From assembly GCF_003790525.1 (NCBI RefSeq), contig NZ_CP033635.1: 64,000 bases of DNA; one strand, written 5' to 3'. Of the stretch, positions 12,152 through 13,377 are shown piece after piece; the stretch's first letter is position 1; every line of letters begins with the position of its first letter. The translations under genes were made by a program, and so were the position numbers. The notes under the pieces are model-generated. The model was not told the origin of the DNA and made no database searches. It worked only from the letters and a program-made list of their open reading frames with translations. This DNA comes from Escherichia coli. GTDB taxonomy: Bacteria > Pseudomonadota > Gammaproteobacteria > Enterobacterales > Enterobacteriaceae.

Positions 12152-12457
12152 TCATGGATGAGCTACAAACCGGGAAAGCCGCTGGCGCAGCAGGCGGTTT
12201 TCCTGCTTCAGGTGCGCAATATCATCCATTAACGTCAGCGCCACCGCGATCCCCGGCCAGTCCAGAGCCAGTTCATGACGCAGGCGTACCGCACGTTGCA
12301 CCACAATGGCGGCATGGTCGTCAAATACCCAGGTTGTTTCCTGGATCTCACGCGGTTCAACCACCCCCAAACCGACAATTTCATTCAACTCCTCTTCAGA
12401 GATGCCGGTATGCAGGCAAAATTCGGTAATAGTAAAAGTCACCGTAACATTAGCCAT
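12152..12457 (-). CDS. cbpM: CbpA modulator CbpM
   Basis: ATG at 12455-12457 gives [35 protein letters not shown]...; MerR-like fold; start overlaps cbpA stop. Confidence 0.85.
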
Positions 12458-13377
12458 TATGCTTTCCCCCAATCTTTACGTGGTTCAAAAGACGACTGGG
12501 CGTCTGCCAGTTGCTGCCACAGCGCGGCAGTGTTTTCATCCGGTTTCGGCGGCATCACGATTTTCAGTACCGCATACAGATCGCCGGTCTGTTTTTTGCT
12601 CACCAGACCTTTGCCTTTAACGCGCAATCGTTGCCCGGCCTGGCTGCCAGGCGGGATAGTCAGCAAAATGCTTTCTTTCAGTGTTGGAACGGTGACTTTA
12701 GCACCCAGCGCCGCTTCCCACGGGCTAACCGGCACCACAATTTCCAGATCCTGGCCGACAATATCAAACAGCGGATGTGGCGCAATATGAATCACCAGCC
12801 ACAAATCGCCATTTGGACCGCCGTTTTCGCCCGGCGTCCCCTGGCCTTTCAGGCGGATACGTTGACCATTGCCGACCCCTGCCGGGATCTTCACTTTCAG
12901 CGTTTTCGGAATTTCCTGTTCGATCATGCCAAAGGCGTTATAAACCGGCAGGTTATAGCTGATGGTACGCTTATGCTCAGTAAGCGTTTCTTCGAGGAAT
13001 ACCGCCACTTCGATTTCAATATCGTGGCCGCGTGTGGCGGGGCGTTGACGGCTCTGGCGGGCATGCTGACCGAAAATTGACGAGAAGATATCGTCAAAAT
13101 CTTCGGCGTTAAAACTCTGACCGTCGCCATGCTGGAACTGACGGCTAAATTGCGGATCGTTGCGATGTTGCCACATCTGATCATACTCAGCGCGACGTTG
13201 TTCATCACTCAACACTTCCCAGGCTTCAGCGACCTCTTTGAAGCGGGCTTCGGCATCCGGTTCTTTGCTGACATCAGGATGGTATTTGCGGGCCAGTCGA
13301 CGATAGGCGGTCTTGATTGTCTTGAGATCGTCCGTCGGTTTCACGCCCATGATGGCGTAATAATCCTTTAATTCCAT
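12457..13377 (-). CDS. cbpA: Curved-DNA-binding DnaJ-like co-chaperone CbpA
   Basis: 306-aa ORF; N-terminal J-domain ([39 protein letters not shown]). Confidence 0.9.

Follow-up and report, generated by a model that had tools for sequence, protein, structure and literature searches.

Compact stop/start junctions in the operons of a 64-kb Escherichia coli chromosomal window and the doubtful start codon of clsC

Where the stop codon of one gene overlaps the start codon of the next, two questions arise: does the junction mark the true start of the downstream gene, and does it tie the translation of the two genes together? Textbook accounts of operons have included overlapping stop/start codons and translational coupling ever since the work on trp, and torCAD, rutA-G and opgGH are all known operons. 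For the stretch of DNA analyzed here (the window, 64 kb in length), an initial annotation made from the sequence had proposed six overlapping junctions. We found that four of them, i.e., cbpA/cbpM, torC/torA, torA/torD and opgG/opgH, had been read exactly right, whereas the motif at rutA/rutB had been misnamed and the start codon assumed at ymdB/clsC is doubtful. These are very probably ordinary compact junctions in the known operons torCAD, cbpAM, rutABCDEFG, opgGH and ymdB-clsC. Both the phenomenon and these particular junctions are already known and present in standard annotations.

The window represents a part of the E. coli chromosome extending from appA to mdtH and matches 5,420 of 5,426 complete E. 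coli genomes. In an alignment with SMS-3-5 (NC_010498.1) it differs by three SNPs and one 1-nt deletion, being otherwise the same. Two annotations, that of the automatic NCBI pipeline PGAP (SMS-3-5, strain XDL) and the curated K-12 record, were moved to window coordinates, and all transferred genes translate cleanly save torS and rutA. The junctions were read directly from the sequence and then checked against the open reading frames (ORFs) and both annotations (Table 1). PGAP and K-12 agree at five of them (torC/torA, torA/torD, cbpA/cbpM, rutA/rutB and opgG/opgH). Both genes of each junction are annotated and conserved and retain the same order in other genera, with rutA being frameshifted in the window.

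Table 1. Gene junctions, ribosome-binding sequences and start codons discussed in the text (window coordinates; spacing is the distance in nt between stop and start, negative for overlaps).
Feature	Position	Strand	Spacing	Details
ymcE, overlapped at both ends	1450..1680	+		annotations; absent from the initial annotation
torA Shine-Dalgarno, inside torC	8844..8850	+		AAGGAAG, about 7-8 nt before torA ATG; duplex -5.7 kcal/mol
torC stop/torA start	8856..8860	+	-1	TAATG; stop TAA over start ATG 8858; direct reading of the sequence, PGAP, K-12
torD Shine-Dalgarno, weak	11391-11395	+		AGGTG; -3.9 kcal/mol
torA stop/torD start	11401..11404	+	-4	ATGA, 4-nt overlap; start ATG 11401 over stop TGA 11402-11404; direct reading, both annotations
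cbpA stop/cbpM start	12455..12459	-	-1	TAATG, 1-nt overlap; stop TAA 12459-12457 over start ATG 12457-12455; direct reading, both annotations
cbpM Shine-Dalgarno-like sequence, inside cbpA	12465..12470	-		GGGGGA in Trp-Gly-Lys codons, about 7 nt before cbpM ATG
rutD stop/rutE start	20379..20382	-	-4	ATGA, 4-nt overlap; annotation; absent from the initial annotation
rutA stop/rutB start	22287..22291	-	-1	TGATG, 1-nt overlap; stop TGA 22291-22289 over start ATG 22289-22287
rutB Shine-Dalgarno	22296-22303	-		AGGAGGTG; -11.6 kcal/mol, spacer 5
rutA 1-nt deletion in T run	22772..22775	-		T4 to T3 on the coding strand; alignment to SMS-3-5, translation, split ORFs
ymdB 3' end/clsC 5' end	45229..45291	+		ymdB stop TGA 45285-45287
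clsC in-frame start candidate (PGAP)	45229		-59	ATG
clsC in-frame start candidate (TetRP)	45232		-56	ATG
clsC in-frame start candidate (initial annotation)	45280		-8	ATG
clsC in-frame start candidate (K-12)	45289		+1	TTG
opgG (mdoG) stop/opgH (mdoH) start	49797..49804	+	-8	ATGAATAA, 8-nt overlap; start ATG 49797 over stop TAA 49802-49804; direct reading, both annotations
Longest-ORF start of cbpM	12472			TTG
Longest-ORF start of rutB	22331			GTG
Longest-ORF start of opgH	49767			GTG

The bare motif is not what distinguishes these junctions. Strings that place a start codon over a stop codon where no gene begins are found at 11 of the 58 stop codons, which puts the motif alone at chance level; TAATG, TGATG or NTGA strings also occur at the stops of cspH, cbpM, yccE and efeB, and the motif was dropped as evidence by itself. 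The signal is instead carried by spacing and conservation. There are 45 co-directional neighbor pairs in the window, 20 of them within +/-30 nt, and in five of these 20 the spacing is precisely -1 or -4, where 0.66 would be expected (binomial p = 3.9e-4). In most groups of prokaryotes, some 15% of the gene pairs overlap in the same direction (PMC6728339). Genome-wide, -4 is the commonest spacing, -1 and -8 are enriched too, and coupling is most efficient from -4 to +3 (PMC12548453). The -8 class, NTGNNTGA/NTGNNTAA, has been described as the third enriched spacing (PMC10666635, as reported in PMC12548453).

As for conservation, the overlapped state is kept in seven genera for cbpA/cbpM and in four genera each for torC/torA, torA/torD and rutA/rutB. 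At cbpA/cbpM the given strand reads CATTA, i.e., TAATG on the minus strand; the junction takes the form tgggggaaaGCATAATG in Citrobacter, two Salmonella species, Cedecea and Raoultella, and ATGA in Yokenella. The genomic surroundings of the pair in Citrobacter, Salmonella, Cedecea and Raoultella are unrelated. The string tgggggaaa at the 3' end of cbpA is conserved in the seven genera, and the duplex of the cbpM Shine-Dalgarno sequence with the 16S rRNA 3' end is computed at -8.4 kcal/mol with a spacer of 7. The torC/torA junction is TAATG (-1) in Providencia and ATGAAAAATAA (-11) in Citrobacter and Salmonella; the N-terminal twin-arginine signal of TorA is conserved and in the sampled genera always follows this junction. 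In turn, torA/torD reads ATGA in Citrobacter and Providencia and ATGATTAA (-8) in Salmonella. The overlap class thus switches among -1, -4, -8 and -11 between genera, and the exact geometry is not fixed.

The opgG/opgH junction was followed in a broader sample, in which a ClsC scan of species-representative genomes returned 80 loci, 38 of them also holding opgGH. In all 38 loci, which come from other genera, ATGAATAA is base-identical, synonymous positions included, in a range extending from Escherichia to Pantoea, Erwinia, Mixta and Acerihabitans. The pair is thus a clean example of the -8 class, invariant across Enterobacteriaceae, Erwiniaceae and beyond, and the Salmonella torA/torD junction is also of this form. 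What sets opgH apart within this class is the absence of a Shine-Dalgarno sequence at a usable distance, the nearest one standing at a spacer of 16. The longest-ORF GTG of opgH is lost in Erwiniaceae.

At rutA/rutB the initial annotation had given the right coordinates and named the motif ATGA. The given strand there reads CATCA, i.e., TGATG on the minus strand, within CATGATGA, which holds two in-frame ATGs. The ATGA reading would start rutB at the upstream ATG 22292. We rejected this codon, as it would leave a Shine-Dalgarno spacing of 2 nt versus 5 for ATG 22289, and as it is missing in Enterobacter, Klebsiella and Buttiauxella, where GTA, CTG or GTG is found, in a different register. The T(G/A)ATG form is kept in the same three genera. 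Since the annotation, the Shine-Dalgarno spacing and these three genera all pick ATG 22289, the overlap is assigned to the -1 class. The upstream gene itself is interrupted in the window: with one T missing from a run of four, the frame shifts and a new stop (22747-22749) cuts RutA short at 210 of its 363 amino acids, some 460 nt ahead of rutB. The deletion is absent from all 5404 complete E. coli genomes with a match to this region, and a lineage-shared variant was rejected on these grounds; it could as well be a homopolymer artifact of sequencing as a real mutation. If the frameshift is real, ribosomes would leave the mRNA early, so that stop/start coupling could not act at rutA/rutB in this genome and rutB would have to depend on its own strong Shine-Dalgarno sequence.

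The proposal that the true start is often not the longest-ORF start (the first ATG, GTG or TTG of the open frame) but a codon further downstream holds for 27 of the 63 annotated genes. Compact junctions had further been said to help fix the start codons. This is borne out for cbpM, rutB and opgH, whose annotated starts lie 15, 42 and 30 nt, respectively, downstream of the longest-ORF starts, where duplex calculation detected no Shine-Dalgarno sequence; for clsC the junction probably indicated the wrong codon. For torA, torD, cbpM, rutB and opgH, the start at the junction is very probably the real one.

Published start-site data cover part of this set. INRI-seq records in vitro initiation on synthetic fragments comprising 30 nt of upstream and 153 nt of coding sequence, with the upstream gene left untranslated (PMC9825163). 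Its Table S2 lists peaks at the ATGs within the overlaps for torA (297/263/296/212/221), cbpM (in K-12, 140/107/169/103/96) and opgH (32/30/33/26/24), and zeros for torD, rutB and clsC; the zeros are weak evidence, as many genes give no peak in this assay. In vivo Ribo-RET values in the same table are zero at all six downstream starts, presumably because the genes were unexpressed under the conditions used. Among the six downstream proteins, OpgH alone is present in an N-terminomics table, and its N-terminal peptide begins at the annotated ATG (PMC13245402, Table S1, row 223). Thus, the ribosome-profiling and N-terminal data to which the initial annotation had pointed support the starts of torA, cbpM and opgH, the last by both approaches, and give no signal for torD, rutB and clsC.

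What such junctions could do for translation can be outlined as follows. A ribosome finishing the upstream protein would stop on the next start codon or within a few bases of it. Judging from general work on such spacings, the terminating ribosome or its small subunit might re-initiate at the adjacent start, or the passage of the ribosome might melt RNA structure near the downstream ribosome-binding site. Either effect would tie the yields of the linked proteins, e.g., TorA and TorD, CbpA and its inhibitor CbpM, or OpgG and OpgH. TorD is the chaperone of TorA. CbpM binds the J-domain of CbpA, and cbpM has been described as lying within the cbpA operon (PMC4063869). Like the window pairs, known pairs of the -4 (ATGA) and -1 (TGATG/TAATG) classes are co-directional members of the same operon whose products often cooperate or form complexes; the Shine-Dalgarno sequence inside the upstream gene that goes with these classes is present for torA, cbpM and rutB and weak for torD. 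When five native E. coli -4 pairs were tested, four were strictly coupled and bioBF was uncoupled, and the need for a Shine-Dalgarno sequence differed between pairs (PMC6728339). A literature search returned no published coupling test for the six window pairs. By analogy with the pairs that have been measured, translational coupling of the window pairs is a reasonable reading, although three of the downstream starts work in vitro without upstream translation.

The competing explanation is compaction without functional coupling, in which each downstream gene uses its own Shine-Dalgarno sequence and overlaps are simply the cheapest packing, ATGA and TAATG being strings that arise easily. We consider it the less probable of the two, yet it has a sound basis. 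The clear INRI-seq peaks of torA, cbpM and opgH were obtained with just 30 nt of upstream sequence, which means that translation of these genes need not depend on the upstream gene; the Shine-Dalgarno sequences of cbpM and rutB are strong and well spaced, and that of torA is moderate. The uncoupled bioBF pair and the drift of the overlap class among genera point the same way. Against it, cbpA/cbpM, opgG/opgH, torC/torA, torA/torD and rutA/rutB are overlapped or abutting in all genera sampled and never separated by a gap, the opgG/opgH junction is invariant even at synonymous positions, and coupling was strict in most of the E. coli pairs tested. Neither torD nor opgH has a good Shine-Dalgarno sequence of its own; inside the upstream gene such a sequence is present for torA, cbpM and rutB, weak for torD and missing at a usable distance for opgH.

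Under the coupling reading, dependence on the upstream gene would vary by pair; it would likely be low for torA, cbpM and opgH and likely greater for torD. Opening the ribosome-binding region is computed to cost 13.1 kcal/mol for torD, 12.0 for rutB and 5.9 for torA; the two highest values belong to genes with no in vitro peak and the lowest to the gene with the strongest one. This pattern fits a graded dependence on upstream translation without proving it. Given its weak Shine-Dalgarno sequence, its high opening cost and its lack of an INRI-seq peak, torD is the best candidate for true dependence on upstream translation.

The ymdB/clsC junction illustrates how a neat stop/start motif can mislead, as three sources give three starts for clsC. 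The choice among them is the sole research lead that we see in this set, since it bears on why ClsC output depends on the neighboring ymdB (PMC8027125, PMC4966929). The 8-nt overlap of the initial annotation does occur, as ATGAATGA at 45280-45287, with an ATG that is in frame with clsC, but neither PGAP nor K-12 starts the gene there. The K-12 start lies 1 nt past the ymdB stop, whereas the PGAP start creates a 59-nt overlap, and in each of the five E. coli genomes inspected besides K-12, PGAP picks this -60 ATG. In four divergent E. coli genomes (95.5-99.1% identical over the junction) every candidate codon is unchanged, so that variation within the species is uninformative on the clsC start.

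Comparison across genera is more telling. The ymdB gene is found directly upstream of clsC solely in Enterobacteriaceae in the narrow sense. Where K-12 has its start codon, E. coli and C. sedlakii carry TTG, the Citrobacter freundii complex carries ATG and E. albertii carries TTA; the 15 further enterobacterial loci that have ymdB-clsC and belong to neither Escherichia nor Citrobacter (among them Lelliottia, Leclercia, Pseudescherichia, Superficieibacter, Enterobacter, Cedecea, Buttiauxella, Siccibacter and Kosakonia) show a non-start codon there. No ATG, GTG or TTG is found within 15 nt of this position in 13 of 22 loci, and two more have GTG at -18/-21 only. An in-frame ATG cluster located -54 to -66 from the K-12 start is present in 21 of the 22 loci with ymdB abutting clsC; its letters come from the YmdB codons for Tyr-Asp-Asp/Glu, and in the same 21 loci the clsC frame is open from the cluster onward. 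When ymdB was resampled synonymously, keeping the YmdB protein, the clsC frame was open in 20-30% of the trials for each fully overlapping species. Multiplying one value per genus over 13 genera yields about 1e-6, a figure that assumes independence of the genera and derives from a small sample of codon usage. In Phytobacter the two genes have separated, with the end of ymdB 181 nt upstream, but the clsC start is still overlapped by a decayed duplicate of the ymdB 3' end (IYLSCYDNKNARRIDLAFR*), and the clsC frame opens at ATG -63, right after an in-frame stop. Such a duplication would be expected if the overlap segment had to be copied when the genes separated.

The comparative picture points to ATG 45229/45232, inside ymdB, as the most likely start of clsC, which would imply an overlap of 56-59 nt; we hold this with about even confidence. 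Of the six downstream genes, clsC alone is listed in tetracycline-inhibited ribosome profiling (TetRP), with 0/30.1/16.1 at ATG -57 versus 0/0/5.7 at the annotated TTG, and the authors judged the -57 signal inseparable from ymdB translation and inconclusive (PMC4909307). The upstream ATGs have a poor Shine-Dalgarno match (-3.8 kcal/mol, spacer 13-16). A start at 45229/45232 would resemble the coat/lysis pair of phage MS2 (-50 nt spacing; PMC12548453) in lying deep inside the upstream gene in another frame. It would differ in that ymdB/clsC is chromosomal, no regulatory hairpin has been identified there and the clsC start is a candidate only.

A start at TTG 45289 as in K-12, giving a TGA-T-TTG junction that is non-overlapping yet coupling-competent, is possible, if less likely. 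It is the curated RefSeq start of K-12 and has the best Shine-Dalgarno geometry among the candidates, with AAGGAG (45274-45279) 8-9 nt upstream (-8.5 kcal/mol, spacer 8). The Citrobacter freundii complex has ATG exactly at this position, the only start that C. werkmanii can use, and in most loci the tblastn alignments with relatives from other genera start at one of residues 1-4 of the 473-aa ClsC. Set against this are the TTA of E. albertii and the non-start codons of the 15 loci mentioned above, INRI-seq values of zero at this TTG in all five replicates, and a frame kept open upstream of it beyond the chance level of the synonymous resampling. A start at ATG 45280, forming an NTGNNTGA (-8) junction like that of opgG/opgH, is improbable: its position in the clsC frame, the enrichment of the -8 class and the retention of its equivalent in E. 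albertii, where the K-12 start position reads TTA, speak for it, but it is used by neither annotation, AAGGAG adjoins it with a spacer of 0, the codon follows from the Asp-Glu-stop codons of YmdB in the other frame and is absent outside Escherichia (ACG in C. sedlakii), and no INRI-seq peak appears there even though the fragment contained it (Tables S2/S3).

With a clsC start at 45229/45232, the final 56-59 nt of ymdB would double as the first 19-20 codons of clsC and as its ribosome-binding region. The two genes have been described as an operon (PMC4966929), and full ClsC levels reportedly need ymdB cloned together with clsC, by what a 2021 review calls an "unknown mechanism" (PMC8027125). 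Tentatively, we suggest that the K-12 start of clsC may be wrong and that the overlap in cis, rather than the YmdB protein, might explain the need for co-cloning. Going by its title, a 2024 paper by Sawasato and Bogdanov in BBA (cited in PMC13015257) reportedly found that the ymdB product is not required. A cis arrangement would be consistent with that title as well, and the paper may already settle the clsC start.

Apart from these six junctions, the window contains three co-directional overlaps that the initial annotation had missed, rutD/rutE, ymcF/ymcE and ymcE/gnsA. The rutD/rutE overlap is specific to this lineage, K-12 having a 9-nt gap between the two genes. In turn, ymcE shares 26 nt with ymcF upstream (1450-1475) and 11 nt with gnsA downstream (1670-1680).

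We found that gene overlap state can vary within a single species. In the present lineage rutD and rutE overlap as ATGA (20379–20382), with a RutD of 270 aa; in K-12 (locus L005, 20956–20968), the two genes are separated by a 9-nt gap without overlap, and RutD has 266 aa. Start assignment varies as well. The rutA/rutB junction offers two in-frame ATGs (ATGATG) for rutB, and in the table of RutB homologues the public E. coli gene calls are divided between 230 aa (MTTL...) and 231 aa (MMTTL...) proteins, a single 231-aa cluster pooling 4945 member sequences; thus, the ambiguity spreads widely across databases. 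For RutA, the curated K-12 annotation gives 382 aa, in contrast to the 363 aa (MKIGVF...) of NCBI's automatic PGAP annotation, and the protein is called at 363 aa in Enterobacter, Klebsiella and Buttiauxella alike. The K-12 start has a value of zero in INRI-seq, an in-vitro start-site assay in which many genes give no peak. The K-12 rutA start may be placed too far upstream.

The rutA gene of the window additionally carries a single-nucleotide deletion. As this was found in none of the 5404 complete E. coli genomes matching the stretch, we take it to reflect either gene inactivation specific to this strain or a sequencing error in the homopolymer run.

Features of the window and of the compared loci (K-12 coordinates as in locus L005; L058–L064, distant loci with ClsC matches)
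Feature	Coordinates	Strand	Remark
appA/cspH	566–578		convergent pair, 3' ends overlap by 13 nt
ymcF/ymcE/gnsA	1287–1843		overlap chain, 26 nt and 11 nt
torT/torR	6864–6891		convergent pair, 3' ends overlap by 28 nt
rutA annotations	22289–23379		compared with K-12 L005 22864–24012
rutA T-run deletion	22772–22775	minus	1 nt; RutA cut off after 210 aa
efeU	30458–31288		intact; pseudogene in K-12
DUF2726 gene	34371–36587		between phoH and tRNA-Ser
Third-frame ORF	45284–45487		67 aa, begins at ATG 45284
ClsC lipoprotein-like start	L058–L064 and other distant loci		about 40–90 nt upstream of ClsC match

At the ymdB/clsC junction, a second, out-of-frame ATG at 45284, placed 4 nt downstream of the AAGGAG Shine-Dalgarno sequence, joins the ymdB stop in a perfect ATGA. 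Its ORF could in principle be open to re-initiating ribosomes. In distant homologues of ClsC, from Cupriavidus and other Burkholderiales, the protein starts with a lipoprotein-like L-x-G-C signal sequence; in place of this, the N-terminal tail of enterobacterial ClsC is short and poorly conserved.

The torS 3' end (~3061–3065, minus strand) changes from K-12 'TTGCATAAG' to 'TTAATAAG', a net loss of 1 nt; therefore, TorS terminates in ...AWLIRKT* instead of the ...AWLHKKDLNAI* of K-12. In SMS-3-5 and XDL, two near-identical strains, PGAP lists the gene as a pseudogene with a frameshift, although the change is confined to the last few residues.

The ymcF/ymcE/gnsA overlaps exceed the usual overlap classes in length, and ymcF starts with ATT in both the K-12 and PGAP annotations. 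Between phoH and tRNA-Ser, the DUF2726 gene replaces the pgaABCD-dgcT-IS3-ycdU block of K-12; in strain XDL an integrase-bearing island of roughly 25 kb adjoins the same tRNA-Ser.
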